From assembly GCA_016869045.1 (NCBI GenBank), contig VGFC01000002.1:2777-66776 (forward strand): a stretch of DNA of 64,000 bases. Reading direction: 5' to 3'. Below, piece by piece: positions 9,662 to 28,535 of this stretch (positions are counted from its first letter, which is position 1; each line of letters begins with the position of its first letter). The stretch is from Armatimonadota bacterium. Lineage in GTDB: Bacteria > Armatimonadota > Zipacnadia > Zipacnadales > VGFC01. The position numbers and the translations under genes are program-made. The notes beneath the pieces were generated by a model that saw only the letters and a list, made by a program, of their open reading frames with translations, searched no databases and had not been told where the DNA came from.

Positions 9662-9690
9662 TTGCAATGGGGTAGGGCGTGTGCTATAAT
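9662..9690 (+). promoter_or_regulatory. sigma70-type promoter with extended -10
   Basis: TTGCAA (9662-9667), 17 nt ending TGTGC, TATAAT (9685-9690). Confidence 0.8.
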
Positions 9691-10039: not shown

Positions 10040-13000
10040 ATGACCTTGCTGCATCGATCGAAGCGTGCAGCGTTGGCCGGGCTGGTGACGGTCGCCGGCC
10101 TGTTGAGTCTCTGTGCGCTGGGCCCGGCACGCACGGGCACTCCCGAGCGGCGCCCGTCGGCGGCCGGCGCCGTGGCGGCTCGCGGCCGGCATCCCATCTT
10201 GCCCAGCCGCGAGATGCCGCCGGCGCTCCGGCAGGCCTGGGAGGACCTCCCGGCCCAGGGGTCGGGACCGGACCCTGACGAGCAACTGACGCCCAACGCG
10301 ATCAGCAGCCAGGAGTTCGACGCGGCGACTCCGGGGCTGAACAAAGTCGCCCGTCTCGCCCTCGTGAGCAACGGCGTGGACGAGTGGATCAACGATGAAC
10401 AGCCCGGTCCCGGCGATCCGGCCCCTCCACCGAACGATCCCAACAACGTGCCCGATGGCCTGATCGACAAGTACGGCCTCTCGACCAACGGCTTTGGCAT
10501 CTGGCTCATGCGCCACGACGGCTCGCAGCAGTTCCCGCTTACTCCCGACATGCCCGGCGATGAGCGTGACCCCGCGTACGACCCGGGCGGCACGGTCCTC
10601 GCCTTCTGCAACAACCAGACCGGCAAGTACCAGATCTACACGGTTGACATCGTCAGTAAGACCATCCGCCAGATCACCAGCGGCACTGACAACAAGACCC
10701 ATCCCACCTGGTCCGCCGACGGCACGTACATCGCCTACGCGACCGACCTCAACGGCCCAGCCCTGCGCGACATCCACATGGTCCGGACCAGTGGAGTCGG
10801 ACTGCCCACGCCGCTGATCGCGACGCCGGCCGACGAGTACGAGCCGATGTGGTCGCCCGACGGTCAGTGGATCGTCTACACCCGCCTCGATGGGGTGGTG
10901 ACCCACATCTGGCGCGCCGATTCCCTGGGCGGCAACCAGGAACAGCTCACCAACGGCGGCGGCGATCCGGCCGTCAGTGACAAGAATCCCGCCTGGCGGC
11001 AGGACGGCCTCTCCACCCAGTTCGCCTTCGCGTCGAACCGTCTCACGGACATCACCGACACGATCCGGGAGCACAACATCTGGACGGCCGGTTCGACCGG
11101 CGAAATCGCGGGCCAGCCCGCCCGGGTGTACTCCAACACCGACGTCACCGATACGTATGATGACATCATGCCCGCGTTCTCGCCGTTGCTCACACCCGGC
11201 GCGGCGCCGATCCGCATCTTCTTCACTTCCTACCGCATGGACAAGGTCGGCCCGCCGACCGGCACGGCCGAGCCGGACATCTGGGGCCTGATCGTCAACG
11301 ACACGCGCTTCCCAATCCTCGAGGAGTTGCCCGCCGTCTCCGAGCGCAACCCCCAACCCGGCAGCGACATCGTCATCAGCGCCAAGGCGTGGGATCCCGA
11401 GACAGGGATGCGCAGTGTCTTCGCGTGGATGAAGGACCCCGACTCGGCCTATGAGGACGCTCAGGGGCGCGAGCGCAAGATCTACACCGGCGGCGCCAAC
11501 GGCATCGGCAAGAGCACGGAGGATATCCACCCTCCGGGCCCGACCTCGTGCCCGATTACCTACTATGAGGAACTGGACTGCCAGCGGGTCGGCAGTGTCG
11601 AGCTGTTCGATGATGGGGACCTCACCAACCACGGCGACGTCTACGCGAACGACGGCATCTTCAGTGGCATCTGGACCACGCCCGCCGTGCCCAGCGACTT
11701 CATCATCGACATCGAGCTGACCGACAACGCGGGCAACTTCATCAACTACGACGACATCTACGGCTTCTCCACGGTGAAGTTCGCACCCCGCACCAACGTG
11801 CTCTTCGTTAACGACTACTGCGAGGGTCAGGGCTTCCTTCGGCAGCTGGGCTTCACCGACCGCGAGTACGCCGCCTACCCCTGCGAGAGCTACTACACCC
11901 TCAACGAGAGCGGGGCCGGCGCGTGGAACAACTTCACCGATGGCTCGTATGGCGAGGACTTCGACATCTGGCGGGTGATCTGCCGCGGGGCGCCGGATCT
12001 CACCGCCTTGACCTACTACGGCCCCACCTCCGAGACTCAGCTCACGATTGACCTGAAGGGCATCCGGGAGGTGCCGGTCGCTAACCGCTGCCTCTTCTGG
12101 GCTGCTCCCCACTGCGGCAGCGGCTGGAATGCGAACGGCACGATCGTGGAGGCCGCCACTCAGGCCTTGCTCAAGAACTTCGTGGACCTCGGCGGCCGGA
12201 TCGCCGTCGCCGGAATGGACATCGCCTGGACTCTCACCATAGAGGGCGCTGTCACCAACAGCTTCCTCACCAACGTCCTCGGGGCGAACTTCGTCAGTGA
12301 CGACAACCTCGGCGGCCGCGACTTCCCGCAGACCATCGACTTCGACCTGGAAGGTGCGGGCAATGGCTTGGTTGCCGGTGAAGTCTGGACCAACGGAATG
12401 TTGCACTGGGCGCCCGACAACAACACCGGCCTGGCCAGCGGCCCGGGTACAGACGGCTCCATGCACTCGCCGTTCCCGGACGTCATTGCGGCAGCCGGCT
12501 CCGTTACGGTGCTGAACTACGTCACCCGCGGTTCGGGCGTGGCGGCCGTTCGCAAGGAGGACCCGAACACCGGGTCCCGCGTGGTGTACTTCGCGTTCCC
12601 CTACGAGGCCATCAGCAAGCGCTACACTGGCACCAACTGCGCCACACCCGACCGCCGCCACAAGCTTACCCACATGACCCTCTGCTACCTGCGCACGGGT
12701 GGCGTCCAGGGGCGCGTTCTGGCCATCGAGGGCTATCGGCCCATCACCGACCCCGAGCCCATCGTCACCGTCCACAACCCGGGCAACCCAGCCATCCTCT
12801 ACGCCCAGCGCTGCCAGAAGGACGGCACGTTCGTCATCAGCGGGATCCCGCCGAACTACTACGAATACCGCGCCACCCGCCCCGGCTACAAGATCGACAA
12901 ACCCCACGACGAGGTGGTTCACGGCGGCCTCCCTTACCCCACGCAGAACTTCGTGCTCACCGTGGACCAGCCGGGCGCCATCGAGGGCACCGTCACCTCC

Positions 13001-15100
13001 CTTGCCACGGGCGACCCCATCGGCGGCGTAACGGTCACCGCGGTGGATGCGGGCGATCCGCTAGCGGCGCCGATCCCGCCCGTCGTCACGGGCGCCGACG
13101 GCAAGTACGTGATCAGTGGGGTGCCAACAAACACCGCCGGCTATGACGTGACCGCCGACGGGAGCACAGCCACGCCTCCGTACGGCAGCGATACGAAGAC
13201 GGTCACGGCGGTCCCGGGCGGTACGGTGACGCAGGACTTCCAACTGCCCGCGGCCGACGGCACCCTTGCGGTCACGGTCAAGGACAGTGCCACGAAGGCC
13301 TTGCTCAAGGATGTGACGGTCGAGGCCGTGCTCAACCGCGCCGTTGTCGGCAGCGGGACCACGGACGACCAGGGCGTGGCGACCTTCGATGTGCCACCGG
13401 GTGTCTATGAGGTCGTGGCCGACAAGCCCGGCTACCAGCAAGCCAAGGCCAACGCCACCGTCCTTAGTGCGCAGACGACCCCTCTGACGATCGAGATGAT
13501 CGCGTTGCCCGGCGGCTCCATCGCCGGTCAGGTCTACCGCGCCTCGACGCCCAACGAGGCCCTCGGCGGAGTGACGGTGCAGGTCATCGTCGGCGGGGTG
13601 ATCGCGGCTCAGACCACCACCACCAGTACGTGGACCTATCCCGGCGGCGGGAATCCGCGCTACAACTTCCTGATCGCCGACGTGCCCTCCGGCGGCCGCG
13701 TCGACGTGCGCGCCGCCAAGACGGGCCTCACGGTCTCTCCCGCCCTGCGCACCGTTACTGTGAGCCCCGGCACCACGACGTACAATGTGAACTTCACCGT
13801 CAGCGCCCTCCACACGTTCGCGGCGGGGCTCCAGTTCTTCTCCGTCCCGTTCGACTACAGCAACCAGGACCCGTTCTTCGTGCTCGGCACGCCGGCAGGC
13901 AAGCAACTCAGGATGGCGACCTGGGATGTGTCTCTCGCCCGCTACGCCGTCTACCCGCGGGCGCCCGCTGATCGCCTGCGTCTCGGTGTGGCTTACTGGA
14001 TGAACCAGGACCAGGCGCAGGACCTCACCATCGAGGGCAGCCGCGCCACGAGTCCGTACCTTATTCCTCTCGGCGTCGGCTGGAACGGGATCGGCAACCC
14101 CTTCAGCACGCCGGTGGACTTCTACGACCTGAAGGTCCGCGACTCTCTCGGTGTCGTGCGCCCGATTCAGGATGCCTTCTCCGCCGGCCAACTGGTCAAC
14201 GGCCTCTACAGCTACACTCCGGGCTGGGGCTACAAGCTGGTGACGACCCTTGTTCCGTACTCCGGTTACTGGATCAAGGCGAACCAGCCCGTCTCGCTCG
14301 TAGTGGAGGACCCCGGCGCCGGGGTTGCGGCCGCTGTTGCACATCGTGAGCGCCCGGCCCTGGCCAAGCCTCAAGATGGCTGGCTGGCACCGATCGTCGT
14401 CTTCTCGGCCGGCATGGGGGATGCGGCCACCGCCTTTGGCGTTACCAGTACGCCGGAGCTCTCGAGCGTGCCCAAGCCACCGTTGCCTGGTGACGAGGTT
14501 GCGGAGGGTGTTCCGTTCGTGTATGCGTCCTTCGCGCCGCTGAACGGCGGCGAACCGTTGGCCGTTGACGCGCGCGGCCCCGGCACACAGCAGTGGACCT
14601 TGGCCGTCCGCACCGCCGGGGTTTCCGCGCCGGTGACGGTGACCTGGCCCGACCTATCCCAGCTGCCCGCGACCGTCCGCCCGGTCCTGCGTGACCGGCT
14701 CACCGGCAGCAAGGTCTACATGCGGACACAGCGCGAGTACACCTACCGACCTCGCGCCGGAAGCGTCCGCGAGTTCGAGATCGAGGTCTCCGACGCGCCA
14801 CAAGGCCTGCTGGCTCTGACCGGGGCGACGGCCAGTTCGCAGGCCGGCGGCGTCGCGATCAGTTACACGCTCTCACGCGATGCCCAGGTGACCGCCGAAG
14901 TCCGCAACATCAGCGGCGTCGTCATCGCCCGGCCTGTTACCGCCAAGCCCGTGACCGCCGGCCGCAACACCAACCTGTGGGACGCTCGGAGCCACACCGG
15001 CGTACCCGTGCCGGTCGGCATGTACTTCGTGAAGCTCACCGCGCTGTCCGACGACGGTCAGCAGACATCGGCTCTGGCCGCCGTGAACATCCGGCGCTAG
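10040..15100 (+). CDS. Large secreted multidomain protein (about 1690 aa): TolB/PD40 beta-propeller, Ca-binding DDG motif domain, alpha/beta domain, several carboxypeptidase-regulatory-like Ig domains, shared C-terminal module with FlgD-Ig-like end
   Basis: Signal-like N-terminus. PD40 repeats (HPTWSADG, EPMWSPDG, NPAWRQDG). LFDDGDLTNHGDVYANDGIFSGIW. Repeated GxIxGxV...GVTV...GxYxI units. C-terminus VRNISGVV...LWD...G.PVPVGMYFV. SD AAGGAG at 10032; exact start (10037/10040/10046) uncertain. Confidence 0.8.
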   Translation: MTLLHRSKRAALAGLVTVAGLLSLCALGPARTGTPERRPSAAGAVAARGRHPILPSREMPPALRQAWEDLPAQGSGPDPDEQLTPNAISSQEFDAATPGLNKVARLALVSNGVDEWINDEQPGPGDPAPPPNDPNNVPDGLIDKYGLSTNGFGIWLMRHDGSQQFPLTPDMPGDERDPAYDPGGTVLAFCNNQTGKYQIYTVDIVSKTIRQITSGTDNKTHPTWSADGTYIAYATDLNGPALRDIHMVRTSGVGLPTPLIATPADEYEPMWSPDGQWIVYTRLDGVVTHIWRADSLGGNQEQLTNGGGDPAVSDKNPAWRQDGLSTQFAFASNRLTDITDTIREHNIWTAGSTGEIAGQPARVYSNTDVTDTYDDIMPAFSPLLTPGAAPIRIFFTSYRMDKVGPPTGTAEPDIWGLIVNDTRFPILEELPAVSERNPQPGSDIVISAKAWDPETGMRSVFAWMKDPDSAYEDAQGRERKIYTGGANGIGKSTEDIHPPGPTSCPITYYEELDCQRVGSVELFDDGDLTNHGDVYANDGIFSGIWTTPAVPSDFIIDIELTDNAGNFINYDDIYGFSTVKFAPRTNVLFVNDYCEGQGFLRQLGFTDREYAAYPCESYYTLNESGAGAWNNFTDGSYGEDFDIWRVICRGAPDLTALTYYGPTSETQLTIDLKGIREVPVANRCLFWAAPHCGSGWNANGTIVEAATQALLKNFVDLGGRIAVAGMDIAWTLTIEGAVTNSFLTNVLGANFVSDDNLGGRDFPQTIDFDLEGAGNGLVAGEVWTNGMLHWAPDNNTGLASGPGTDGSMHSPFPDVIAAAGSVTVLNYVTRGSGVAAVRKEDPNTGSRVVYFAFPYEAISKRYTGTNCATPDRRHKLTHMTLCYLRTGGVQGRVLAIEGYRPITDPEPIVTVHNPGNPAILYAQRCQKDGTFVISGIPPNYYEYRATRPGYKIDKPHDEVVHGGLPYPTQNFVLTVDQPGAIEGTVTSLATGDPIGGVTVTAVDAGDPLAAPIPPVVTGADGKYVISGVPTNTAGYDVTADGSTATPPYGSDTKTVTAVPGGTVTQDFQLPAADGTLAVTVKDSATKALLKDVTVEAVLNRAVVGSGTTDDQGVATFDVPPGVYEVVADKPGYQQAKANATVLSAQTTPLTIEMIALPGGSIAGQVYRASTPNEALGGVTVQVIVGGVIAAQTTTTSTWTYPGGGNPRYNFLIADVPSGGRVDVRAAKTGLTVSPALRTVTVSPGTTTYNVNFTVSALHTFAAGLQFFSVPFDYSNQDPFFVLGTPAGKQLRMATWDVSLARYAVYPRAPADRLRLGVAYWMNQDQAQDLTIEGSRATSPYLIPLGVGWNGIGNPFSTPVDFYDLKVRDSLGVVRPIQDAFSAGQLVNGLYSYTPGWGYKLVTTLVPYSGYWIKANQPVSLVVEDPGAGVAAAVAHRERPALAKPQDGWLAPIVVFSAGMGDAATAFGVTSTPELSSVPKPPLPGDEVAEGVPFVYASFAPLNGGEPLAVDARGPGTQQWTLAVRTAGVSAPVTVTWPDLSQLPATVRPVLRDRLTGSKVYMRTQREYTYRPRAGSVREFEIEVSDAPQGLLALTGATASSQAGGVAISYTLSRDAQVTAEVRNISGVVIARPVTAKPVTAGRNTNLWDARSHTGVPVPVGMYFVKLTALSDDGQQTSALAAVNIRR

Positions 15101-15113
15101 TCCCTACCCGACA

Positions 15114-15138
15114 GGAGGACAGGCATTCCTGCCTGTCC
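15114..15138 (+). repeat. GGAG-type REP palindrome (family B)
   Basis: GGA-GGACAGGCA TTCC TGCCTGTCC. Other copies at 17357-17381, 18715-18963 (split) and 56400-56424 (reverse). Confidence 0.85.
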
Positions 15139-15212
15139 AAGACTCGGTCTGTGGAACAGAAAACGCGCATTTTGCAGGACGTTTCGGGGCCGACGGCTCG
15201 TACCGCGTGAGT

Positions 15213-15241
15213 TTGCAAACGCCGGACCGTTGTGCTATACT
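15213..15241 (+). promoter_or_regulatory. sigma70-type promoter with extended -10
   Basis: TTGCAA (15213-15218), 17 nt ending TGTGC, TATACT (15236-15241). Confidence 0.8.
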
Positions 15242-15297
15242 CCACGCGTTCGCGCCGGCCGCGCCCCGGACGCACAACGTCGGAGGGAGAGGTGCAC

Positions 15298-17340
15298 ATG
15301 CGCTCATTCTCACCAAGGTCGAACGCTCGCCACGTGTCGCTCCTGGGGGCCTGCGTGCTGCTGGCCGCGACGGTGCTACCCGCCGCGCTCTGGGCACAGG
15401 GCGGCGATGTGACGACCGTCGCCGTCGTGCGGTTCACCGACATGACTGCGCGGAGGAGCTCGCTGCTGGAAGCGAAGGCGACCGATGCCGTCGCTTTGGC
15501 CCTGAGCGACTCCAAGGAGTACCTGGTCACGCCGGCGCGGGAAGTGGACCGCGAGGTGCAGGCCCTCGCGCTCAACCTCCCCCTGTCCATGACCGAGGCC
15601 GTGCGGTTGGGGAAACGCCTCGATGTGGACTGTGTTTGCCTCGGCCAGGTCCTGGTGGCAGCCGTCAACACCACCACCGGCAAGGGTGAGGTGCGCCTTC
15701 AGATCATGATGGTTGACGTGGAGGCGGCCGAGCTCCTCGACGGTTCCACGGTGACCACGCAGACGAAGCCCATCCCCGGCTGGTCGGGAACGGAAGCCGA
15801 CATCCTCAACGAGGCCCTACGTCAGAGCGCGGAAGAGGGCGTGGCCCGCATGCTCGCGACGCGCGTACGGCGAGGCTCCGTTGATGCCGTGCTCCCCACC
15901 GGAACGTGTGCGATCAACCTCGGCTCCGAGGACGGGGCAGCCTCCGGCATGAAGCTGGTTGTGATGCGCCCTGTCTACCTCAAGGAGCTAGAGACCGTTA
16001 CCCTCCGCAAGATCGGCTACCTCGAAGTCAGTCGCATGCACCCGGACATGTGCTATGCCGACCCGGTGCGGAACGTTGCGCCCCGCACCGGCGACTACGT
16101 CGTCCGCGTCTACGAGCCCCAGGCCGTGGTTATCAAGGAGGCGGCCAAGCAGGACCGTACGAAGTTCGTCTGGGGCCTCGCGTCACTGGCGCTCCTGGGC
16201 GCCCTGGCCGGGATTGCCACCGGCGGGAACGAAGGCACCAAGCCCCCGACGCCGATCTCGTACCTCTACCAGGACACTCCCGGCGTGAGGCCGACCATCC
16301 GGGTGGAGTTCCTCCACGGCCTGGACAAGGCCTTCGGGCACCTGTTGTTCCGTGGCCCGATCCGCTACTTCCCGGCCGACCCCTACTACCTGGTTGAGGT
16401 CTCCACCCGCGGCATGGGTGAGGAGAGGATCCGGGCGACGGAGGACCTCCCGGACTGGCGCGATCAGAGGGACGTCACGATCACCGTCACCTTCCGTGAT
16501 GAGAGCGGCGACTACACGACCGAGACCGTGGACATCACCTACATGCACCCACAGCTGGACCCGGGCAGCACCTACTACCACCGTATCCAGCGCGTGACCA
16601 AGCCGCAGTTCCCGCCCGGCACGAACCCGCCGATTGGTAGCACGGGCGGCACGGAGCAGGTGGCACAAGCGGCCGGCCCCGATGAGAACGTCATCGACCA
16701 GAGCGGCGACTTCCCGATGCTGAGTCAGGCCTCGGACCCGGCGGGTCCCGTCACCTACATCGAGGCACCGACACTCTCGACGACGGTGCCGCAGCCGGGG
16801 GTGCCTCAAAACACAGCGTCCATCGACTTCGAGTGGAGCACGGTGGTGGGCGCCGACGACTACATGCTCGAAGTCTACGACGCCAACGGGACTGTTCTGC
16901 TCCGACGCACGGGCATCCGGCCGACCCCGCCGACCATCCGCGAGAACTGGCGGCCCGCCGCCGGTGACCTGGCCGGGCAGAGCACGTACTACTGGCACGT
17001 CGGCGCGAGGAAGAAGACGGAGGTCGGTGCGCGTGGTCAAGGCATCCCACAGTGCGGCGCTGGATCGAACCTCCAGGTGGGCTACGTCCTCTCCTCTGAA
17101 CAGTCCTTCGTCACGGCGCCCATCCCGCCCGGACCGGTCGGCACGACGACGCCCGTGGCCGGCCCGGGCAAGATCGCGGCAAAGCCGGGCAAGCAGGCCA
17201 ACGCCACGGCCGGCGACACCAAACCCGCAAAGGGCGGCGGCAAGCCGGGCAGGACCGGGGGCAACGCACCGCCGCGGCCGGCCCGTCCGCCCAGGACGCC
17301 CGTCTGGCAGCCGGCCCCCACCGTGGGGCCCGGGCGGTGA
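15298..17340 (+). CDS. Exported protein (680 aa): CsgG/TolB-N/FlgT-like N-terminal domains, internal TM helix, Ig/FN3-like domains, Pro/Lys-rich tail
   Basis: SD GGAGGGAGAGG before ATG 15298. Signal peptide ending ALWA. TTVAVVRFTD...AVRLGKRLDVDCVCLGQV. FlgT-C-like RRGSVDAV...INLGSEDGAASGMKLVV. Hydrophobic WGLASLALLGALAGIATGG. Confidence 0.6.
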   Translation: MRSFSPRSNARHVSLLGACVLLAATVLPAALWAQGGDVTTVAVVRFTDMTARRSSLLEAKATDAVALALSDSKEYLVTPAREVDREVQALALNLPLSMTEAVRLGKRLDVDCVCLGQVLVAAVNTTTGKGEVRLQIMMVDVEAAELLDGSTVTTQTKPIPGWSGTEADILNEALRQSAEEGVARMLATRVRRGSVDAVLPTGTCAINLGSEDGAASGMKLVVMRPVYLKELETVTLRKIGYLEVSRMHPDMCYADPVRNVAPRTGDYVVRVYEPQAVVIKEAAKQDRTKFVWGLASLALLGALAGIATGGNEGTKPPTPISYLYQDTPGVRPTIRVEFLHGLDKAFGHLLFRGPIRYFPADPYYLVEVSTRGMGEERIRATEDLPDWRDQRDVTITVTFRDESGDYTTETVDITYMHPQLDPGSTYYHRIQRVTKPQFPPGTNPPIGSTGGTEQVAQAAGPDENVIDQSGDFPMLSQASDPAGPVTYIEAPTLSTTVPQPGVPQNTASIDFEWSTVVGADDYMLEVYDANGTVLLRRTGIRPTPPTIRENWRPAAGDLAGQSTYYWHVGARKKTEVGARGQGIPQCGAGSNLQVGYVLSSEQSFVTAPIPPGPVGTTTPVAGPGKIAAKPGKQANATAGDTKPAKGGGKPGRTGGNAPPRPARPPRTPVWQPAPTVGPGR

Positions 17341-17356
17341 GAGTACGTACGAACTT

Positions 17357-17381
17357 GGAGGACAGGCCTTCCTGCCTGTCC
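17357..17381 (+). repeat. Family B REP copy
   Basis: GGAGGACAGGCCTTCCTGCCTGTCC, one mismatch to the 15114 copy. Confidence 0.85.
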
Positions 17382-17414
17382 CCCCAGCCGTGGGGCGGTC
17401 GTGAGTTCGGGGCG

Positions 17415-18710: not shown

Positions 18711-18729
18711 GCTCGGAGGACAGGCATTC

Positions 18730-18948
18730 TTGTGGTTTGCCAAACCAGCGTAACGCTTGCTCATCATTGAGGCCCGCTCCAGACGTGGAGCATCCCTAGA
18801 CGCGATGGGTGCGTGAGATGCCCGTTGACATCATCAACGGCACCAAAGGCGCTCATTTAGGATGTAGTGGGTGGTTTGGGGCAGCGGAGGCTGTTCCTCT
18901 GTCACATTCCCACCCATCGTAACGAGCGTTACGCATGCTGGCAATCAA
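18730..18948. mobile_element. 219-bp MITE-like insertion inside a family B REP, with 5-bp target duplication
   Basis: GGACAGG-CATTC (18725-29)-[TTG...CAA]-CATTC (18949-53)-CTGCCTGTCC. Imperfect terminal IRs: TTGTGGTTTGCCAAACCAGCGTAACGCT versus the reverse complement of the right end, TTGATTGCCAGCATGCGTAACGCT. Confidence 0.7.
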
Positions 18949-19038
18949 CATTCCTGCCTGTCCAAGCATGGCTCCTACAACCAATCCCTTCCCGCCCCGG
19001 CGGGACGAGATCGGCGGATACCGGGAGGAGGAACCGGC

Positions 19039-22434: not shown

Positions 22435-22481
22435 ATCGCCGCGTGTGCTGTCGGCAGCACCTGAGAGGAGTTGAACCGCTC

Positions 22482-25232
22482 GTGCGAATGCGCTATGGCC
22501 ATCTGGTCATCGGCTTCGGTGTTGTGGTCCTGGCGAGCGCGCTGATCGCCGGGGTTGCGTGGGGGGTGGATGACCCCGCGGGCGTCATGCGTCTGTACGT
22601 TGAGGTCCCCGACTGGGTGATCGACCCTACCGACACCCAGAACGGCCCAGCCAGTCGCTTCGGGCTGCAGACGCTTACCGGCGATCCGACCACCCTGAAT
22701 GACGACAATGCGATCGTCGCCAGCGTGGTGGACCCCACGAACAACCTCAACACCTACTCCTCGATCACCACCATTTCGATCGACAACTCCGACGCCCAGG
22801 CGACCGACACCGTCATGGCTGACCTGAGCACGATCCAGGACGGCGGCGGTCGCGAATTCTGGCCTCTGCCGCCTACTGAGCGGACCCGCGACGTCGTCTA
22901 CCGCATGCTCGTCGGCATTGACGACAACGATCCCTCCCAAGCGGTGGAGGTCATTGAGGTCTACGCCCAACTAGTGCTGCTGCGCGACACGCTGAAGCTG
23001 GATTTCGTGCTCACCAACCGGGGCACACAGACCCACAGAGTCGGCCTTCGCCACTTCATCGACTGCCAGTTCGGCGGCGGTCTGCAGCAGAACGACGGCA
23101 CCTTCATCACCCTCTCCGACGGCAGGATCATCGACACTGAGACTGTCCTGGGTGTCACGGAGTCCGTCCCCGATGCCTGGGTCTCGTTCGACAGTACCAG
23201 CAACCCCGCCGTCATCTTGCGCGGCACCATCACGGGCGGCGAGGTCGACGATCCGGGGCTGGCGACCTACTCCGCAGGTGCGCCCGACCGTGTCGAATTC
23301 GGCCAGCGGATCAACATGGGCAATGACGATCAGTTCGACTTCACCCCCACTTCCACGTTCACGATCGCCGGCGAGGACTGGGGCGCCGCTACGCGCTGGG
23401 ACGAGGAAACCCTCTCTGTGGGGGCTTCGCGCCGCTATGTAACCTACTACGGGCTGGGCGGCAGCGCCTCGGACTTCACGCCGCCCTATGTCCTGGCCTC
23501 GTATGCCCCCTTCGAGTTGCAGGTCATCGAGGATGACGATCCCACCACTCCCGACGTTGAGGACGCCTACCTCGCCGATAGCTCCGGGAGTGCCATCTGG
23601 GACGTGCTCGCCTACTGCGACAACTTCGGCGCCGGCTCCATCCTCGACGCTCGCGCCACAATCAGCCTCCCCCCGGGCCTGGAGCTTGACCAGACCCAGG
23701 GCATGCAGTCCCGAACCGTACTCCTTGGCAGCATTACCCGCAATGCCCAGGCCTCCGCCGTCTGGCATGTTCGTGCAGTCCCCGGCGTCCGGCCCGGCGT
23801 GCACACGATCACGGTCAGCGGCCCGCTCGGCCGCAGCGTCACCCGGAAGATCAACATCCCCGCCCTGCCGACGCTGCCCCAGGACGGACTCGATCCCGTC
23901 CGCGGCCTTAGCATGGTGACGGTGCCCTATATCTTCCAGATGACCGACGCCGAGCATGTCTTCCAGAGCCTCGGCAGCCTCCAGGGCTCTGACGCCGCCC
24001 TGGTCCGCTGGGATCCGCGGTCCCAGATCTACCGCTTCTTCCCGGACAACTTCGTGACCAATATCGAGCCGGGCGCGGCCTACTGGCTACTCAACCGTCT
24101 CCGGTTGCCGATCACATTCCCTGACCCGCCGGATCGGCAGCCCGTGCCGACCACCGACCCGTTCGCGCTGAACCTGGACATGGGCTGGAACCAGATCGGC
24201 TGTCCGTTCACCACCACGGTGCGCTTCGATCAGGTGAAGATCGTAGGCTCGGACGGCATTGAGCGCTCCGTTCTCGATGCCGCCAGCGCTGGCCTGATCG
24301 TGCCCACACTCTTCGCCTACGATCCCGCCCAGAACGACTACACTTTCCACACCGTCCTGGGGAACATGGTGATGGAGCCCTACGTCGGCTACTGGCTGCT
24401 CGTTCTGCGGCCCATCACATTCGTCTTCCCTGCACCCACAATCATGCCGTTCAAGGCGCAGCCGACCTCACCTGCTCCTACCGCCCCGGACGGTTGGCGC
24501 GTCCCGTTGGTGGTCAAGGGCGGGGACCTGGAGCGCACGAACCGCGCCCTGGGCACGGCGGACGGGGCCGCCGACGGCCCGGACCTTGCCGATGTGATGT
24601 GTCCGCCTTCAGCCGCCGCACCAAACGGAGCGCGCCTGGACGCGTACTTCCTGTGCGACGGGTGGGGCCCGCGTTCCGGTCGCTACTACACTGACGTCCG
24701 CAGCGCCCGGCCCGGCAAGCAGAGCTGGAGTTTCGTCGTGGACACCGACATGTCCGATCAGCCGATCAGCATTTCGTGGCCGGATCTCAGTCAAATGCCC
24801 CAGAACCTGATCGCCACGCTGGAGGACCTGCAGAGCGGCCGCGTCCGATTCATGCGGACCAGCACCTCCTACACCTTCGGCTCCAGCCAGGGCGGCCCCC
24901 GCCAGTTCCGGGTCACCGTGGAGGACCGAGGCGCTGCAGCCCTGCAGATCATGGGCTTCAACTGCGCTCCGACCGCCCAGGGCGTGCAGATGAGCTACAC
25001 GCTCAGTGCCCCGGCCAGCGTGGATGTCGTGGTCCGCAACATCGCCGGCCGTGTCGTGAAGCGCGTCGTGCAGTCCCGCCAGACGCCGGCGGGCGAGGCC
25101 GTCGTCACCTGGAGCGGTCAGCAGGACAACGGCCTGCTCGCTCCCAACGGTGCATACGTGATCCAAGTCGTCGCCAGGTCGCCCGAGGGCGAACAGACAG
25201 GGCTCTTGCGCACGGTCTACTATCATCGGTGA
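22482..25232 (+). CDS. Secreted protein (about 915 aa) with uncharacterised beta-rich N-terminal region and shared C-terminal FlgD-Ig module
   Basis: Signal-like YGHLVIGFGVVVLASALIAGVAWG. C-terminal GWNQIGCPF, EPYVGYW, WPDLSQMP, VRNIAGRVV, APNGAYVI. Start at 22482 or 22488. Confidence 0.75.
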   Translation: MRMRYGHLVIGFGVVVLASALIAGVAWGVDDPAGVMRLYVEVPDWVIDPTDTQNGPASRFGLQTLTGDPTTLNDDNAIVASVVDPTNNLNTYSSITTISIDNSDAQATDTVMADLSTIQDGGGREFWPLPPTERTRDVVYRMLVGIDDNDPSQAVEVIEVYAQLVLLRDTLKLDFVLTNRGTQTHRVGLRHFIDCQFGGGLQQNDGTFITLSDGRIIDTETVLGVTESVPDAWVSFDSTSNPAVILRGTITGGEVDDPGLATYSAGAPDRVEFGQRINMGNDDQFDFTPTSTFTIAGEDWGAATRWDEETLSVGASRRYVTYYGLGGSASDFTPPYVLASYAPFELQVIEDDDPTTPDVEDAYLADSSGSAIWDVLAYCDNFGAGSILDARATISLPPGLELDQTQGMQSRTVLLGSITRNAQASAVWHVRAVPGVRPGVHTITVSGPLGRSVTRKINIPALPTLPQDGLDPVRGLSMVTVPYIFQMTDAEHVFQSLGSLQGSDAALVRWDPRSQIYRFFPDNFVTNIEPGAAYWLLNRLRLPITFPDPPDRQPVPTTDPFALNLDMGWNQIGCPFTTTVRFDQVKIVGSDGIERSVLDAASAGLIVPTLFAYDPAQNDYTFHTVLGNMVMEPYVGYWLLVLRPITFVFPAPTIMPFKAQPTSPAPTAPDGWRVPLVVKGGDLERTNRALGTADGAADGPDLADVMCPPSAAAPNGARLDAYFLCDGWGPRSGRYYTDVRSARPGKQSWSFVVDTDMSDQPISISWPDLSQMPQNLIATLEDLQSGRVRFMRTSTSYTFGSSQGGPRQFRVTVEDRGAAALQIMGFNCAPTAQGVQMSYTLSAPASVDVVVRNIAGRVVKRVVQSRQTPAGEAVVTWSGQQDNGLLAPNGAYVIQVVARSPEGEQTGLLRTVYYHR

Positions 25233-25354
25233 TCCCTCGGCTGTCGCGGCGGGCCCTTGTGTCCGCCCATGCCCGAGGAACCGTTCGTCACACGCGTCGC
25301 CACTAGTCGAAGCATGACGGGGCTGCAACGCCTCAGCCGGGAGGGAAACGGCTC

Positions 25355-26428
25355 ATGATCAGACTTCGCTGCCACAGGTTGGGCAGAGCCCTGAGCTTCA
25401 CGCTTGTCGCCGCTCTGTTGTTCGGCATCGTCGTCCCGCGTGGCCTGGTGCTCTGTCCGCGGGCCGCGGCCCAGATGGACACCAAGACCGTGCTCGCATT
25501 CCCTGCCGTTGACGAGAGTGACGAAGGCAACCTCGAGGAGGTCGCGGCGCGTGTCAGCTCGGCCTTGGCTCTCGCCGGGCAAGCCTCCAAGAGCCTTGAC
25601 CTCGAGGTGTTCTCGCCCTCCTCGCCGATGGTGCGTCGGGCCCTCGCCGACGGCAGCCTACGAACCGCCGACGTCGAGGCACCCAAAGACGCCGCCAATG
25701 CCCTGATCATCGGCCAGGCCTTCCGCGTCGATACCGTGGTCCTGCTTTCCGTGCAGAGCCTCAAGGTCGGGGGCGATCCACGGGAGGCCGAGATCGCCGT
25801 CATGGGCACCGAGTACGACGTAGCCACGAACGTAGACGCCGATACGGGCGCCATCGTGGCGGAGCCCAAGGGCAACACCTTCGGTGTGTCCGGCCAAGCC
25901 AAGGCCCGGCAGGCCAAAGCCGGCGACGACGCTGGGCTGATCCGCCTCGCCGCCAAGAACGCGGCCGACAAGATCGTTGGCGTACTCTCTGGCCAGACCG
26001 CCCAGACGTTCGAGAAGGAGGGCGTCGGCCCTCGGAAGCGCTCGAACACCTGGCGTTGGCTGGCCATTGCCATCATCGTCGGCGCCTTGGCTGCCGCGAC
26101 CATCGGCAGCGGCGGCGATGATCCCGGACCGCCGGTGGATGAGACGATCCCGACGCGCTGTTCCGCTCGGGCGACGACCGATGGCATCCGCCTCACCTGG
26201 GCACCGCCGACGACGATCGCCAAGACCATCTTCAAGTACGAGATCCAGCGTTCGGCGGATGGCGGCGTCTTCGTGCGCATCGATAACGACAAGCTTGGCC
26301 CGAGCGCCGACCGGTTCACCGACTTCAACATCGTCACGGGGACAGCCTACGTCTACCAGATCCGGGTGCTCTACACTGACGGAACGAGTTCCATCTGGGT
26401 CACGTTCAACCAGGTGGTAGCGCCCTGA
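25355..26428 (+). CDS. Exported protein (357 aa): CsgG/TolB-N-like domain, TM helix, FN3 domain; shorter paralogue-like partner of 15298..17340
   Basis: Signal ending AAA-Q. KTVLAFPAVD...IGQAFRVDTVVLLSV. TM WRWLAIAIIVGALAAATIGSGG. FN3-like IRLTWAPP...YEIQRS...FTDFNIVTGTAYVYQIRV. Confidence 0.65.
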   Translation: MIRLRCHRLGRALSFTLVAALLFGIVVPRGLVLCPRAAAQMDTKTVLAFPAVDESDEGNLEEVAARVSSALALAGQASKSLDLEVFSPSSPMVRRALADGSLRTADVEAPKDAANALIIGQAFRVDTVVLLSVQSLKVGGDPREAEIAVMGTEYDVATNVDADTGAIVAEPKGNTFGVSGQAKARQAKAGDDAGLIRLAAKNAADKIVGVLSGQTAQTFEKEGVGPRKRSNTWRWLAIAIIVGALAAATIGSGGDDPGPPVDETIPTRCSARATTDGIRLTWAPPTTIAKTIFKYEIQRSADGGVFVRIDNDKLGPSADRFTDFNIVTGTAYVYQIRVLYTDGTSSIWVTFNQVVAP

Positions 26429-26555
26429 GGGGCTGACTCACTGACGTGATCACAAACTCGCTTCACGCACGGGGACCCTGTAGCCAGGCCTCCTGAGGGA
26501 GCCTGGCTTCCGTGCTCCCCGACCCAACCCGCGTCGGCGCTCCGGAGGAATCGCC

Positions 26556-28535
26556 GTGTCGCGATCCGGCAAGTGGCGTCTATGGGCCCTCGCCGCCTCG
26601 GCCGCGGTCGCCGCTCAGGGCGGCGCCCAGACGATCCGCTTCGGTGGGAACCGCGTAGTGATCACCGCCAATCCCGCCCAGTTGCCCGCGGACGGCACCA
26701 CCGCTTCCCGCATTCGGATCGAGGTTCGAGGCCGCGATGACGCCCCCGTGCCGGATGGGACCGAGGTCATCATCGCCACGGACATCGGCGACCTCACGGC
26801 CGACCTCGGCTCCAAGCAGCGCTCGGCGGCCGTCCGCACCGAGGGCGGGTACGCCATCGTCCTCCTGACCAGTGAGGAGCCTGGTACGGCGACGATCCGC
26901 GCCACCTACCTGGACAGCCGCAACCAAGTGATGGTCGAGTTCCTGCCTCCGGGCGAGGCGGGCAAGCGAGAGTCCCGGGTCGTGCACGTGACCGGCGGAT
27001 GGGTCGGGTACTGCACCGACATGGACCTCGTCGAAGCCCGCGGCCCCGCCGAACTGCGCTACCAGGGCCTTACCATCGAGGCCGACACCCTCCAGCTGAA
27101 CCCCCGCACCCTCGTCGTGAAAGCCGACGGCGTTCGGCTCAAGCGCCGAGACCAGGAGCTGCAGTGCGAGGACACGTACCTCGAACTCAGCACCATGCGG
27201 GGCGGCTGTCGCCGCTTCGGCGACATGGGCGTTGAGGAGATCACGTACAACGCCTACACGCTGAAGCCGACGGAAGCTGAGCAGCAGATTCCCCAAGACG
27301 CCTATCGCTTTGATGACCGCGAGGGCCGCGTCTGGACGGTCGCTCGCTCGCTGTCCCTGTTCCCGGGCGAGAAGATCGTGCTGCGCAATGCCAGCCTGCA
27401 CGTCGATCAGCACCGGGTCATGCGCTACCCGCCCTACTGGGTGATCGCCTTCGAGGGCTACCGAGGCTCGAGCAACACGCAGTTCCTGCAGTTCGATAGC
27501 ACCGGCGGGCTCGCCCTGGACTTCCCGCTCTTCTTCAGTGTCACGGATACGTCTACGGGTGCTCTCAAGATCCAGCGCGGGGCCTCCAACGGCAGCGTGA
27601 TGGCCCGCGAAGGCTGGTCCCTCGCTCTGGAACTCACCAACCAGAGCCTCACCCGCGAGCGCGAGACCCAACTGCTCATCGACGGGCTTCCGAAGGACCA
27701 GTGGGGTCTTCTCCTCACGGACCGACGGAAGCTCTTCGGCGGGAGCGACGCAGACTTCAGCTTCGCCTGGCCCGACCACCGCAGCATCTTCACCGACTTC
27801 AGCGTGTTCAACTACGGCTCGGCCGGCCACCTGGCCGCCCGCACCTTCGCCGACCGGACCGAGTTGGGTGAATGGTCCTACGGCTTCAACGCCGACTATC
27901 TCAGCAACTCGATCCCCGTGGGGCCTGCCGCTCGCCTCCGCTGGGGCACCGGCCTGCAGGCGGGCCGGAACCCCTGGGACACGAACGGCTTCGTGGTCGG
28001 GCACCGCGCGTCCACCTACTTCGACTTCACCGGCTGGCAGCCGAGCAGCTCAACCTCCCTCGTGCCCGGAATCAGTGACACCTTCTCGTGGGACACCGCC
28101 AACCGTCGGCAGAACGTGGCGCGGCTCCAGCTGTCCCTCAACCACCGACTCGCGAAGGGCATCAACGCGAACGTGCGCTACAGCTTCGAGCACCGCACGG
28201 GCGGCGGGACGTACGATCCGCTCGACACCCGCAATGGGATCAACCAGCAGCTCAACCTGAACGTCAACGCCTATGCCTCCAAGCGGTGGGACGCGTATCT
28301 CAACGGCAGCTACGGCCTCACGGACGAGACGGTCTACGGCTTCGGCGCGCTGAACTACCACCCGCTGCCGAAGTACCGCATCGGGCTCATCGGCACGTAC
28401 TACAAGTTCACCGACCAGTCGTTCAGCGATCTTGAGGTCAGCCTCAACCGCGCCCTCGGCAACCGCGAGATCGGGGTCCGTTACTCCACCACCGATGACC
28501 GCGTCTCCCTGCAGTTCGGCGCCATGCAGTTCTGA
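26556..28535 (+). CDS. Outer-membrane beta-barrel protein, LptD-like, with N-terminal invasin/Big_1 Ig domain (659 aa)
   Basis: Signal peptide. LPADGTTASRIRIEV...PVPDGTEV...GTATIRA (Big_1-like). ELRYQGLTIEADTLQL (OstA jellyroll-like). Alternating aromatic beta-strands and a C-terminal Phe (AMQF). Confidence 0.65.
   Translation: MSRSGKWRLWALAASAAVAAQGGAQTIRFGGNRVVITANPAQLPADGTTASRIRIEVRGRDDAPVPDGTEVIIATDIGDLTADLGSKQRSAAVRTEGGYAIVLLTSEEPGTATIRATYLDSRNQVMVEFLPPGEAGKRESRVVHVTGGWVGYCTDMDLVEARGPAELRYQGLTIEADTLQLNPRTLVVKADGVRLKRRDQELQCEDTYLELSTMRGGCRRFGDMGVEEITYNAYTLKPTEAEQQIPQDAYRFDDREGRVWTVARSLSLFPGEKIVLRNASLHVDQHRVMRYPPYWVIAFEGYRGSSNTQFLQFDSTGGLALDFPLFFSVTDTSTGALKIQRGASNGSVMAREGWSLALELTNQSLTRERETQLLIDGLPKDQWGLLLTDRRKLFGGSDADFSFAWPDHRSIFTDFSVFNYGSAGHLAARTFADRTELGEWSYGFNADYLSNSIPVGPAARLRWGTGLQAGRNPWDTNGFVVGHRASTYFDFTGWQPSSSTSLVPGISDTFSWDTANRRQNVARLQLSLNHRLAKGINANVRYSFEHRTGGGTYDPLDTRNGINQQLNLNVNAYASKRWDAYLNGSYGLTDETVYGFGALNYHPLPKYRIGLIGTYYKFTDQSFSDLEVSLNRALGNREIGVRYSTTDDRVSLQFGAMQF

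Follow-up and report, generated by a model that had tools for sequence, protein, structure and literature searches.

A seven-gene cluster of Armatimonadota that looks like a candidate for an undescribed apparatus that positions proteases at the outer membrane

Closest described systems

The systems closest to the locus described here are the T9SS attachment complex (PorU-PorV and PorZ-PorQ) with its type-A cargo, LptD-LptE, the PelC-PelB, CsgG, and FlgT H-ring systems, and type 11 secretion (Slam). PorV has a FadL-like fold, and PorZ is built of propellers and a CTD, a likeness to tail-bearing propeller proteins. The FlgT, PelC, LpoB, and CsgG families are ring-forming or outer-membrane-associated periplasmic proteins. 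The barrel of E. coli LptD comprises approximately 550 aa. Type 11 secretion matches a barrel in the outer membrane to client proteins that have a conserved C-terminal beta domain in common; the clients are lipoproteins, and the barrel, Slam, has 14 strands (DUF560) and carries TPR repeats. T9SS has been described as confined to the FCB superphylum (PMC12398890), and PorE has been proposed as an outer membrane-peptidoglycan tether (PMC12204202). Armatimonadetes carry core LPS synthesis genes, and LptD and LptE of diderm Firmicutes are not recognizable by sequence (PMC5007114).

In this study, we analyzed a 64-kb stretch of armatimonadotal DNA (64,000 nucleotides, hereafter the window). It contains seven genes, A to G, that look like a candidate undescribed apparatus placing proteases at the outer membrane. 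As in T9SS, large predicted secreted proteins end in a beta-sandwich related to FlgD-Ig and the PorU CTD, and a clan-CD cysteine peptidase and a predicted outer-membrane barrel are encoded beside the tail genes. Unlike in T9SS, the peptidase is C11 rather than C25 and many lineages dispense with it, the barrel is LptD-like rather than FadL-like, the host phylum lies outside the FCB group, and one version of the cluster, in Abditibacteriota, has no CTD-like domain. The locus also resembles Slam in combining a barrel with common-tail clients, which is a likeness of logic with no homology seen; the barrel here exceeds that of Slam by far in size, and no lipobox is present in A, D, or E.

Gene content and conservation of the cluster

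The cluster and its genes are as follows.

10040-28535, + strand: seven-gene cluster A-G, all co-oriented
9662..9690, + strand: promoter-like site 5' of A, TTGCAA-17-TATAAT, with TG before the second hexamer
9983/10040-15100, + strand: gene A (ORF from 9983, probable start ATG 10040); signal-like N-terminus, TolB-like beta-propeller, ~650 aa without family match, three CarboxypepD_reg domains, tail
15232/15298-17340, + strand: gene B; signal peptide, FlgT-like N-domain and small beta-barrel (~15412-16107), hydrophobic helix (16165-16221), two FN3-like domains, basic Pro/Gly/Lys-rich disordered C-terminus
17337-18710, + strand: gene C (4-nt overlap with the end of B); clostripain-family C11 peptidase, clan CD, weak signal-like N-terminus; catalytic His169 at 17841-17843 and Cys227 at 18015-18017, with Asp225 also conserved
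18871/19039-22434, + strand: gene D (probable start GTG 19039); signal peptide, S8 subtilase, Ig-like domain, tail
22443/22488-25232, + strand: gene E (probable start ATG 22488); signal peptide, ~430-aa N-terminal region without known family, tail
25355-26428, + strand: gene F; signal peptide, B-paralogous N-domain (~25478-25993), hydrophobic helix (26060-26116), one fn3 domain (26150-26389)
26556-28535, + strand: gene G; weak signal peptide, Big_1/invasin-type Ig domain (26652-26945), 12-strand jellyroll-like sheet (26982-27449), beta-barrel of ~20-24 strands with a C-terminal Phe (~27483-28532)

The initial annotation had described seven co-oriented genes with signal-like N-termini throughout, and the reading frames agree. 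An N-terminal hydrophobic segment with a Kyte-Doolittle mean of at least 1.6 across 19 residues was found in A, B, D, E, and F; those of C and G are shorter and weaker. Third-position GC of the seven ORFs is 0.80-0.88. In a consensus scan, the promoter-like site fits 10 of 12 consensus positions, as a pattern match only that does not imply function.

Gene A matches PD40 (3e-18), CarboxypepD_reg (1.1e-22), and TolB in PDB (6e-17), and its orthologs also match Tricorn_N and Tricorn_2nd. Gene D encodes a predicted S8 subtilase (PF00082, 94.6 bits) with intact catalytic residues, Asp227, His259, and Ser558 in ORF numbering (motifs IIDQG, HGT, and GTSAAAP). The expected propeller protein and S8 protease were thus both found among the three cargo-like proteins. 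PF13860 is the sole family match of gene E, and the N-terminal region of this protein has no sequence match in PDB. Gene C matches Peptidase_C11 (PF03415, 88.7 bits) and, aligned with clostripain (9cip), retains the GHG and DAC motifs and the His/Cys dyad, in line with the earlier assignment as a C11 cysteine peptidase, here shown to be intact.

The arrangement polA-rpsA-coaE-[A-B-(C)-D-E-(F)-G]-uvrB-uvrC is found repeatedly in Armatimonadota. Approximately 25 loci have the genes in the order A-B-(C)-D-E-(F)-G; they come from Zipacnadia-like, Armatimonadia, Chthonomonadaceae, 'WS1', and groundwater and fen Armatimonadota MAGs, and in these loci homolog identity falls as low as 38% for G and 35% for B. 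Intergenic gaps within the cluster are tiny or overlapping, and every divergent cluster examined encodes an S8 subtilase as its second tail-bearing protein. Abditibacteriota have a reduced form, rpsA...B-S8-E'-G-uvrB; here, the S8 and E-like proteins carry tail domain 1 only, the CTD-like Ig domain is missing, and B and G are kept. The downstream context differs in L001/L002, and G still adjoins tail-bearing genes there. Among the loci examined, G was seen only inside the cluster. The cluster is vertically inherited in Armatimonadota and reduced in Abditibacteriota.

The core of the cluster consists of B, the S8 protein, E, and G. Gene F is absent in L016, L018, and L040 and is accessory or dispensable, and the C11 gene is also accessory: seven distinct cluster versions leave it no space between B and D (L001/L002, L011, L013, L016, L018, L021, and L040), and L022/L023 have no C11 match. 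The notion that C11 belongs to the core machinery was therefore abandoned, and the many versions with a C11 gap make a PorU-like essential role unlikely. The expected co-occurrence of the gene types held for B, S8-tail, E-tail, and G, which are syntenic into Abditibacteriota, but not for C11 and F. The seven genes could be functionally unlinked, and neighbors by chance or through shared regulation only, as the coming and going of C11 and F among lineages would suggest; nevertheless, we regard this explanation as highly improbable, because the order B, S8-tail, E-tail, G is held in two phyla at 35-38% identity with tiny gaps or overlaps.

The client set is constant. The same three proteins occur wherever all three were seen, and Abditibacteriota have the S8 and E-like proteins only. 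An unchanging set fits subunits of one assembly better than varied cargo.

The shared tail and its relation to T9SS

A, D, and E have in common a C-terminal module of ~455 aa with three separable domains, located as follows.

13733..15097, + strand: tail of A (BLAST/alignment with D and E; HMM E 1e-225)
~14840-15052, + strand: FlgD_ig part of the A tail (PF13860, 24.7 bits, sub-cut-off)
21028-22431, + strand: tail of D, with FlgD_ig at ~22180-22386
23787-25229, + strand: tail of E
23892..24431, + strand: tail domain 1 in E; motifs GLxMxSxPY, GYW, GWNxIGxPF, and PWxGYW
24480..24932, + strand: tail domain 2 in E; motifs DGW, WPxLS, TGxRxYMRT, and RRFR
24942..25229, + strand: tail domain 3 in E; FlgD-Ig/T9SS-CTD-like beta-sandwich ending in a conserved Arg

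The sharing of a C-terminal module had been noticed in the initial annotation and is far beyond chance by BLASTP (A/E 4.7e-54, D/E 1.3e-52, A/D 8e-43; ~31% identity over 475-484 aligned columns). An HMM search found only these three copies within the window. With PF13860, the tails of D (38.0 bits) and E (41.7 bits) lie above the cut-off of 27 bits and that of A falls under it. The proposed FlgD-Ig-like character applies to the last ~85 aa but not to the other two domains. In PDB profile searches, domain 3 matches FlgD (4e-11) and, more weakly, the PorU CTD (6za2, E 0.0018). The C-terminal residue is Arg in 117 of 143 tails.

Tail domain 1 is the sole tail domain retained in all cluster versions and is always present alongside B and G. 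Its own HMM matched it alone in Abditibacteriota, Capsulimonas, Thermodesulfobacteriota, and Desulfatibacillum MAGs. The HMM of domain 2 independently matches FCB-group proteins. No Pfam or NCBIfam family covers domain 1, and domain 2 likewise has no covering family. Abditibacteriota keep B and G with no CTD-like domain; hence, that domain is not the link to B and G.

Among 1.84 billion representative proteins searched, 1742 matched the tail at E<=1e-30. Nearly all of the best 150 span the whole module, and a gene-E-like N-terminus was the best match in 35 of these 150. The organism-named tail proteins among those checked numbered three, all from Armatimonadota. Tail-bearing proteins also occur outside the cluster in the same MAGs (L015 and L024). 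The three domains match in the same order in proteins of Bacteroidota, Calditrichia, Marinimicrobia, Ignavibacteriae, and Eisenbacteria. The FCB-group tail sits on varied proteins, and its last domain passes T9SS type-A thresholds in four of the six proteins scanned. In FCB genomes with the tail, none of B, F, and G lies within 10 kb of it, which indicates that the tail does not depend on this machinery.

A, D, and E could be ordinary cargo of a canonical or divergent T9SS encoded elsewhere, with B, F, and G unrelated or accessory. The FCB domain order and type-A scores speak for this, as do weak matches to the PorU and PorZ CTDs and the conserved C-terminal basic residue, which parallels CTD motif E (PMC11969387). 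We nonetheless hold it to be doubtful. T9SS is described as FCB-specific (PMC12398890); the ORFs scanned in the window gave no PorK/L/M/N, SprA, PorV, PorQ, or PorU match, in keeping with the earlier remark on PorK/L/M/N and SprA; the tails here remain under the TIGR04183 cut-off (E ~0.01-0.02); the Abditibacteriota version misses the CTD-like domain altogether; and this reading offers no reason why synteny with B and G is strict. T9SS components gave no match to B, F, or G. Of the T9SS-analogous pathway once suggested, the homology of the tails to T9SS-type tails stands, but no homology of machinery was found. Similarly, the suggested sorting or anchoring signal is related to T9SS sorting domains, but its CTD-like part does not tie it to B and G. 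A general secretion system accords less well with fixed clients, vertical inheritance, and the CTD-less variant than a dedicated envelope assembly does.

The barrel, its FlgT/CsgG-like neighbors, and a proposed assembly

The Ig domain of G matches Invasin_D3 and Big_1 under cut-off, and invasin and intimin Ig domains in PDB at 1e-07. In a Foldseek search of PDB with the AF2 model of G (pLDDT 68, pTM 0.49), the best 15 matches were all LptD (E 1.5e-12 to 2.3e-09), with TM of only 0.26-0.35, followed by FimD/PapC ushers. An aromatic C-terminal residue, as in G, is common in outer-membrane barrel proteins. On the basis of the model, G is a predicted outer-membrane protein with an LptD-shaped barrel, and its reading as an Ig domain plus LptD-like barrel was upheld, though at low TM and modest pLDDT.

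G might simply be the LptD of this lineage. It would then be a divergent LptD inserting LPS, with B and F as LptE- or PelC-like partners, and A, D, and E would be merely co-transcribed envelope proteases or scaffolds, e.g., for outer-membrane quality control, and not substrates of G. The predicted fold of G comprises an N-terminal beta-sheet domain and a very large barrel, its best matches are full-length LptD structures, and G is encoded beside small alpha/beta periplasmic-domain proteins, B and F. The housekeeping neighborhood conserved across the phylum would be expected of an essential envelope gene, G was confined to the cluster in the loci examined, and the sequence-unrecognizable LptD of diderm Firmicutes makes divergent LptDs in other diderm lineages plausible. 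However, G has no LptD/OstA match in Pfam, NCBIfam, or PDB profile searches, nor with E. coli LptD by HHalign; it has an additional N-terminal Ig domain; and its barrel, at ~350 aa, is shorter than the E. coli LptD barrel. Neither B nor F is a lipoprotein, both carry a hydrophobic helix and FN3 domains, the neighbors are proteases and not Lpt genes (lptA, lptB, lptC, lptF, and lptG were not found nearby), and G stays with tail-bearing genes even where the downstream context changes (L001/L002). We therefore judge this explanation to be rather unlikely.

Gene B has no sequence match in Pfam, NCBIfam, or PDB. Its AF2 model (pLDDT 75) matches FlgT best in PDB by Foldseek (3w1e, E 1e-11, ~270 aligned columns), then PelC, LpoB, CsgG, and GNA1162 (TM ~0.65, normalized to target length), which agrees with the CsgG/FlgT-type fold first assigned. 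The pairing of B with a co-encoded outer-membrane barrel recalls PelC and PelB. Unlike these proteins, B falls outside their sequence families, lacks a lipobox, and adds a hydrophobic helix, FN3-like domains, and a basic tail; flagellar, curli, and Pel genes are absent nearby. The fn3 match of gene F (6.7e-05) is under cut-off. BLAST finds no similarity between B and F, but their N-domains are homologous by HHalign (probability 98.4%, E 4.8e-15, in an alignment that starts in the signal peptides, which may raise the score). Their suggested paralogy thus holds for the N-domains. By Kyte-Doolittle, a second hydrophobic segment lies at residues 312-330 of B and 236-254 of F.

The FlgT, LpoB, and PelC folds are periplasmic, and A combines a TolB-like propeller with CarboxypepD_reg, as PorE does. 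These features, the fixed client set, and vertical inheritance would also suit a periplasmic scaffold or outer membrane-peptidoglycan tether akin to Tol-Pal or PorE, with proteases attached; tails would then join A, D, and E, and nothing would be exported across the outer membrane. In contrast, none of the seven proteins has the peptidoglycan-binding domains OmpA_C, SLH, or LysM in Pfam/NCBIfam, the FCB tail proteins end in a T9SS CTD and are presumably secreted, and a large Ig-bearing barrel would have no obvious role. A scaffold of this kind seems improbable to us.

We tentatively favor, as a possible reading, a vertically inherited envelope operon that builds an outer-membrane-associated protease assembly. 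A, D (a predicted active S8 subtilase), and E would be Sec-exported, and the LptD-fold barrel G with its N-terminal Ig domain would be their docking site or conduit in the outer membrane. B, and F where present, would form a periplasmic ring or adaptor under the barrel, comparable to PelC under PelB and to FlgT around the flagellar LP ring. The common three-domain tail may be a docking or retention element, like the retained CTDs that hold PorU and PorZ on the PorV and PorQ barrels, and the C11 peptidase would be an accessory maturation enzyme, probably Arg-specific. A, D, and E, with their tails processed or not, might lie on the surface or in the periplasm.

Several lines of evidence point to the protease assembly: synteny at low identity in a conserved polA-rpsA-coaE/uvrB-uvrC location; the fold of B, which resembles ring-forming or outer-membrane-associated proteins, and the homologous N-domain of F; the LptD fold matches and aromatic C-terminus of G; signal-like N-termini on all seven proteins and intact S8 and C11 catalytic residues; and the FlgD-Ig/PorU-CTD relation of tail domain 3, the tail proteins outside the cluster, and the wide spread of the full module. 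Other observations count against it. The G model is mediocre, and the operon has no ATPase or motor and hence no visible energy source for transport. If the helix of B and F spans the inner membrane, the FN3 domains would be in the cytoplasm, which is odd and unexplained. The TolB-like and CarboxypepD_reg parts of A resemble periplasmic TolB and PorE, so that the periplasm fits equally well, and the fixed housekeeping location and clients are as compatible with a structural envelope complex as with an export system. Searches gave 24 homolog clusters for B and 23 for G.

Gene content and the shared C-terminal tail

Seven ORFs (A to G) were located on the + strand between positions 9983 and 28535 of the window, in agreement with the seven co-oriented genes of the initial annotation. 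Their third-position GC was 0.80-0.88 in sequence of 67% GC; hence, they were taken as real genes. The cluster is flanked by housekeeping genes, with polA, rpsA, and coaE upstream and uvrB and uvrC downstream. Rfam and tRNA scans returned nothing inside it.

Genes of the cluster (window coordinates)
A: ORF from 9983, probable start 10040, to 15100, + strand; signal-like N-terminus, TolB-like propeller, about 650 aa without a match, three CarboxypepD_reg domains
B: probable start 15298, to 17340, + strand; no family match
C: 17337-18710, + strand; Peptidase_C11, 88.7 bits
D: 18871-22434, + strand; Peptidase_S8, 94.6 bits
E: 22443-25232, + strand; C-terminal FlgD_ig as sole match
F: 25355-26428, + strand; weak fn3 as sole match
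G: 26556-28535, + strand; weak Big_1/Invasin_D3 matches at the N-terminus

A Kyte-Doolittle scan revealed one N-terminal hydrophobic segment each in A, B, D, E, and F, and shorter h-regions in C and G. A, D, and E lack a lipobox and were rejected as lipoproteins. The propeller of A matched PD40 (3e-18) and TolB in the PDB (6e-17). The N-terminal part of E had no match in PDB sequence and profile searches.

C scored 88.7 bits against PF03415 (cut-off, 25.8). Its alignment with clostripain (9cip, 3e-14) placed His169 on the GHG motif and Cys227 on the DAC motif, and Asp225, two residues before Cys227, is kept. In clostripain, this Asp is thought to set Arg specificity. By its family HMM and His/Cys dyad, C is a C11 peptidase (clostripain family, clan CD). 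D matched PF00082 (94.6 bits) and carries the triad motifs IIDQG (D227), HGT (H259), and GTSAAAP (S558); the HMM and the Asp/His/Ser motifs mark it as an S8 peptidase.

The last ~455 residues are common to A, D, and E (BLASTP E 8e-43 to 4.7e-54, ~31% identity), which bears out the C-terminal module noticed in the initial annotation. A profile of the three tails found no further copy in the window. The Prevotella 'long CTDs' were rejected as an explanation of the tail length because they are only 69-82 aa. The three domains of the tail were modelled separately. Domain 1 (~180 aa) carries the motifs GLxMxSxPY, GWNxIGxPF, and PWxGYW, and domain 2 (~150 aa) carries WPxLS, TGxRxYMRT, and RRFR. Domain 3 (~95 aa) is the only one covered by any library; D and E pass PF13860 (FlgD_ig), and A does not. 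[quoted passage not shown] The tails of the window stayed below the TIGR04183 cut-off (14.8-15.8 bits vs 23; E about 0.01) and had no match to PF18962, but homologous tails from FCB-group phyla pass one or other of these models. A 20-sequence tail profile searched against the PDB returned FlgD Ig domains (4e-11), the PorU CTD (0.0018), and the PorZ CTD (0.57).

A, D, and E each end in Arg, as do 117 of 143 related tails; this is reminiscent of the basic residue conserved in CTD motif E (PMC11969387). Terminal Arg residues and a C11 peptidase keeping the clostripain-type Asp both occur in the cluster.

Terminal Arg codons (window coordinates)
15095-15097: last Arg of A
22429-22431: last Arg of D
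25227-25229: last Arg of E

The FlgT-like proteins B and F and the predicted barrel protein G

B had no match in Pfam, NCBIfam, or PDB sequence and profile searches. An AF2 model of B was built from 20 homologues (pLDDT 75 overall, ~85-92 over the FlgT-like part). From the N-terminus, it has an alpha/beta domain at residues 40-188 and a small beta-barrel at 194-271, then a long helix with the hydrophobic segment (276-308), two beta-sandwiches, and a disordered basic tail. In Foldseek against the PDB, FlgT ranked first (3w1e, E 1.0e-11), with the 'LPHT ring' 8z5n at 1.2e-11. PelC, CT253, GNA1162, LpoB, and CsgG followed for the first domain, and FN3 arrays were matched by the C-terminal part. 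The target-normalised TM was 0.45-0.68 for PelC, LpoB, GNA1162, and CsgG. By its model, B has the alpha/beta periplasmic-domain fold of the FlgT/PelC/CsgG/LpoB group; it falls in none of these sequence families (Pfam, NCBIfam, PDB sequence). BLAST showed nothing between B and F; only profile-profile comparison showed that their N-domains are homologous (HHalign 98.4%, E 4.8e-15). The earlier description of B and F as CsgG/FlgT-like and paralogue-like is therefore correct at the fold level.

PelC, CsgG, and LpoB carry an N-terminal lipobox, whereas the signal peptides of B (...ALWA/QG) and F (...AAA/QM) have no Cys at the cleavage site. A second hydrophobic segment lies at residues 312-330 of B (16165-16221) and 236-254 of F (26060-26116). 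This helix is Gly/Ala-rich with positive charges on its N-terminal side and is followed by a Pro-rich linker and FN3 domains. A cleaved signal peptide together with an inner-membrane stop-transfer helix would place the FN3 domains in the cytoplasm, yet their folds and the Pro-rich linkers have an extracytoplasmic look. No standard topology puts both the FlgT-like and the FN3 domains outside the cytoplasm. B (17137-17337) and its homologues end in a disordered tail of 60-70 aa, strongly basic and rich in Pro/Gly/Lys/Arg, with a conserved short end motif, VWQPAPTVGPGR or GYATPFPTK.

In the AF2 model of G, from 21 homologues (pLDDT 68, pTM 0.49), an Ig domain (33-130) precedes twelve strands (143-298), after which ~20-24 more run to the C-terminal Phe. 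Its best 15 PDB matches in Foldseek were all LptD (E 1.5e-12 to 2.3e-09), at a TM of 0.26-0.35 with a model of pLDDT 68; FimD/PapC ushers ranked next. The LptD fold comprises an N-terminal beta-jellyroll and a 26-strand barrel, compared with ~12 strands before and ~20-24 within the barrel of G. An inverse autotransporter (intimin/invasin) has a 12-strand N-terminal barrel followed by Big_1 passengers; G was rejected as such because its single Big_1-like Ig domain lies N-terminal to a far larger barrel that matches LptD and ushers. G was also rejected as a chaperone-usher usher, in spite of the second-rank FimD/PapC matches. Usher barrels work with a PapD-like chaperone and pilin subunits, and neither family was matched in the cluster (Pfam, NCBIfam).

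G could simply be a divergent LptD. Armatimonadetes have core LPS synthesis genes, and LptD and LptE are not recognisable by sequence in diderm Firmicutes (PMC5007114); a local LptD is thus a live rival. Against this, no sequence method links G to LptD. G had no Pfam or NCBIfam match to the LptD/OstA families at E<=0.1, its PDB profile search returned only Ig domains, and HHalign of the G family with E. coli LptD gave nothing. No LptE family was matched among the seven cluster proteins (Pfam, NCBIfam). We regard a divergent LptD as unlikely. A purely periplasmic scaffold, with which the predicted fold of B is consistent, is improbable beside the barrel modelled for G.

Distribution of the cluster and of the tail

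Word-indexed searches grouped the homologues of G into 23 clusters and those of B into 24; in both sets, one cluster carries the name Candidatus Zipacnadales, which is an Armatimonadota order (PMC10290634). The named homologues come from Armatimonadota, Ca. Zipacnadales, and Abditibacteriota. Contig look-ups and a species-representative genome scan provided 66 related loci (handles of the form L001), which were mapped with custom HMMs. The recurrent order was polA-rpsA-coaE-A-B-(C11)-S8tail-Etail-(F)-G-uvrB-uvrC, and it was seen in Zipacnadia-like, Armatimonadia, Chthonomonadaceae, 'WS1', fen, groundwater, and other Armatimonadota MAGs. That the genes have no functional link at all is hardly credible beside this recurrent order. 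The second tail protein was an S8 protease in every divergent cluster checked; a single-sequence S8 HMM overlooked divergent S8 genes, which Pfam identified.

The remaining genes vary. C11 is present in at least 10 cluster versions, including a divergent one in L019 that escaped a two-sequence HMM and was recognised by reading the ORF. L001/L002, L011, L013, L016, L018, L021, and L040 have no space for C11 between B and D, and no C11 match was seen in L022/L023. F is missing, with G directly after E, in L016, L018, and L040. In L022/L023 (two Armatimonadota MAGs), A is absent before B, and a 2984-aa protein ending in domain 1 follows E (11324-20275); in L023, an F-like gene comes next. Hence, B, S8-tail, E-tail, and G make up the core, to which A usually belongs. 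The grouping proposed in the initial annotation stood for these genes and failed for C11, which is missing from at least seven versions. The most cautious reading is that of a core envelope gene cluster, inherited vertically in Armatimonadota and Abditibacteriota. In the Abditibacteriota MAG contig JAGDDM010000280.1 (L040, 2977-11576), the order is rpsA...B-S8-E'-G-uvrB, and neither the S8 nor the E-like protein extends beyond tail domain 1, both lacking domains 2 and 3. L035 and L039 are grouped with this observation, and further proteins with domain 1 only come from a Capsulimonas MAG and one more Armatimonadota MAG.

The tail is widespread. An exhaustive search of 1.84 billion representative proteins with a 464-position tail profile gave 20762 matches at E<=1e-3 and 1742 representatives at E<=1e-30; a word-indexed search with the three-tail alignment gave only 4 proteins and badly underestimated the family. 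Almost all of the best 150 matches spanned the whole profile. By N-terminal region, 49 of these 150 were A-like, 22 D-like, 35 E-like, and 44 none of the three, the last including fragments and some later recognised as divergent S8. Other N-terminal parts were FG-GAP/ASPIC, a protein named LGFP repeats, and a protein named DUF3466. All three organism-named tail proteins checked were from Armatimonadota. Tail proteins outside the cluster were seen in L015, as two S8 proteins in tandem, and in L024, as a single protein; these loci belong to the MAGs of L012 and L013, respectively.

In other phyla, large and varied proteins carry domains 1, 2, and 3 at their C-terminus, each with its own match and in the same order, behind N-terminal parts such as BNR/sortilin-like glycoside hydrolase, FN3 arrays, FG-GAP, laminin-G, and beta-helix. 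The sources were Bacteroidota, Calditrichia, Ignavibacteriae, Marinimicrobia, Eisenbacteria, Desantisbacteria, and some MAGs labelled Bacillota. None of the tail genes of these phyla has B, F, or G within 10 kb. In four of six such proteins scanned, the last domain exceeded T9SS type-A thresholds (L045, 45.1 bits; L060, 25.4; L052, 24.4; L036, 33.7 on PF18962). Domain 1 alone terminates giant proteins in Desulfatibacillum and Thermodesulfobacteriota MAGs. Hence, the tail is a recurrent combination of mobile domains and is homologous to T9SS cargo tails. Domain 1 or the whole tail ends giant proteins in lineages that are not known for T9SS, namely L059 (Desulfatibacillum MAG, 2-10687), L055 (Thermodesulfobacteriota MAG), and L028, L033, and L038 (MAGs labelled Bacillota), and it also occurs on L048 (a contig binned as Thermoplasmata, archaeal). 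Either true dissemination of the domains or misbinning could explain these six cases.

Comparison with type IX secretion and proposed model

T9SS has been described as confined to the FCB group (PMC12398890), whereas the named cluster homologues come from Armatimonadota, Ca. Zipacnadales, and Abditibacteriota. None of the core components (SprA/Sov, PorV, PorK/L/M/N, PorU) was found among the ORFs scanned in the 64-kb window, where the initial annotation had also seen no PorK/L/M/N or SprA-like gene, and none was recognised beside the cluster in related loci. In T9SS, the C25-type sortase PorU removes the CTD; the only clan-CD enzyme of the cluster is C11, which is dispensable. Of the T9SS analogy drawn earlier, the tail stands as a real, if distant, homology. 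For the machinery, the analogy lacks support, as no homology is seen and C11 is not core. In addition, one lineage dispenses with the CTD-like domain, and the set of clients is fixed. A, D, and E might instead be cargo of a T9SS encoded elsewhere. The homology of their tails to T9SS cargo tails is compatible with this, the sub-threshold TIGR04183 scores are less so, and we consider it quite unlikely.

The model that we favour, tentatively, assigns the proteins as follows. G would serve at the outer membrane as a conduit or docking site. B, joined by F in the versions that have it, would form a ring or adaptor in the periplasm, on the analogy of PelC-PelB and FlgT. A, D, and E may be held or passed at G via their common tail, like the retained CTDs of PorU/PorZ on PorV/PorQ, and C11 would be an optional maturation enzyme. 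More broadly, we put forward as a doubtful possibility an unrecognised outer-membrane export or anchoring system ancestral to Armatimonadota and Abditibacteriota, with an LptD-derived barrel, FlgT/PelC-fold rings, no recognised T9SS core, and clients with T9SS-cargo-homologous tails.

If this were true, the CTD-type signal would predate, or be independent of, the T9SS machine, which bears on the origin of the T9SS sorting signal. Protein display would have taken over an LPS-translocon fold, perhaps with clients coupled to LPS where it is inserted. A little-studied diderm phylum outside the FCB group would then have an outer-membrane protein display apparatus with a parts list unlike any numbered secretion system, joining T9SS-type CTDs, the LptD fold, and FlgT/PelC-type rings, so far treated separately. 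It would also bear on LPS and surface-protein insertion in diderms without sequence-recognised LptD/LptE, such as diderm Firmicutes (PMC5007114). On a conservative reading, the results provide a phylum-wide core gene cluster usable as an Armatimonadota marker, two widespread domains (tail domains 1 and 2) without a Pfam or NCBIfam model, and a new architecture for FlgT-fold proteins.

Literature on T9SS, FlgD-Ig tails, or LptD in Armatimonadota yielded no description of the cluster or of T9SS-like tails. Its parts list matches no known system, its function being read from genomics alone. It is well-defined, conserved, and testable, and combines three known structural themes in a new way. Its presence in Chthonomonadaceae and Abditibacteriota MAGs means that cultured relatives may make it testable.

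Other features of the window
2592-2680, - strand: tRNA-Leu(CAA), ordinary neighbour
3422-4579: S49 (SppA-type) signal-peptide peptidase, ordinary neighbour
33837-37574, - strand: 1246-aa DUF6259 protein, ordinary neighbour
40541-43474, - strand: 977-aa ORF with the methyltransferase-like motifs FDPACGSGT and NPPF
44773-64000, - strand: surface-glycan or glycosylation cluster

The region of the 977-aa ORF is the only lower-GC stretch of the window (0.62-0.63 vs ~0.68) and had no Rfam match; the ORF resembles a fused restriction-modification enzyme, sited on what seems to be a small acquired island. The glycan cluster encodes an FG-GAP protein, a DegT/EryC1 aminotransferase, a PMT-like glycosyltransferase, a 1317-aa protein with a weak CBM_4_9 match, a weak Wzy/O-antigen-ligase-like protein, a MurJ-like flippase, and two GT4 glycosyltransferases. 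A surface polymer might be made by these genes.
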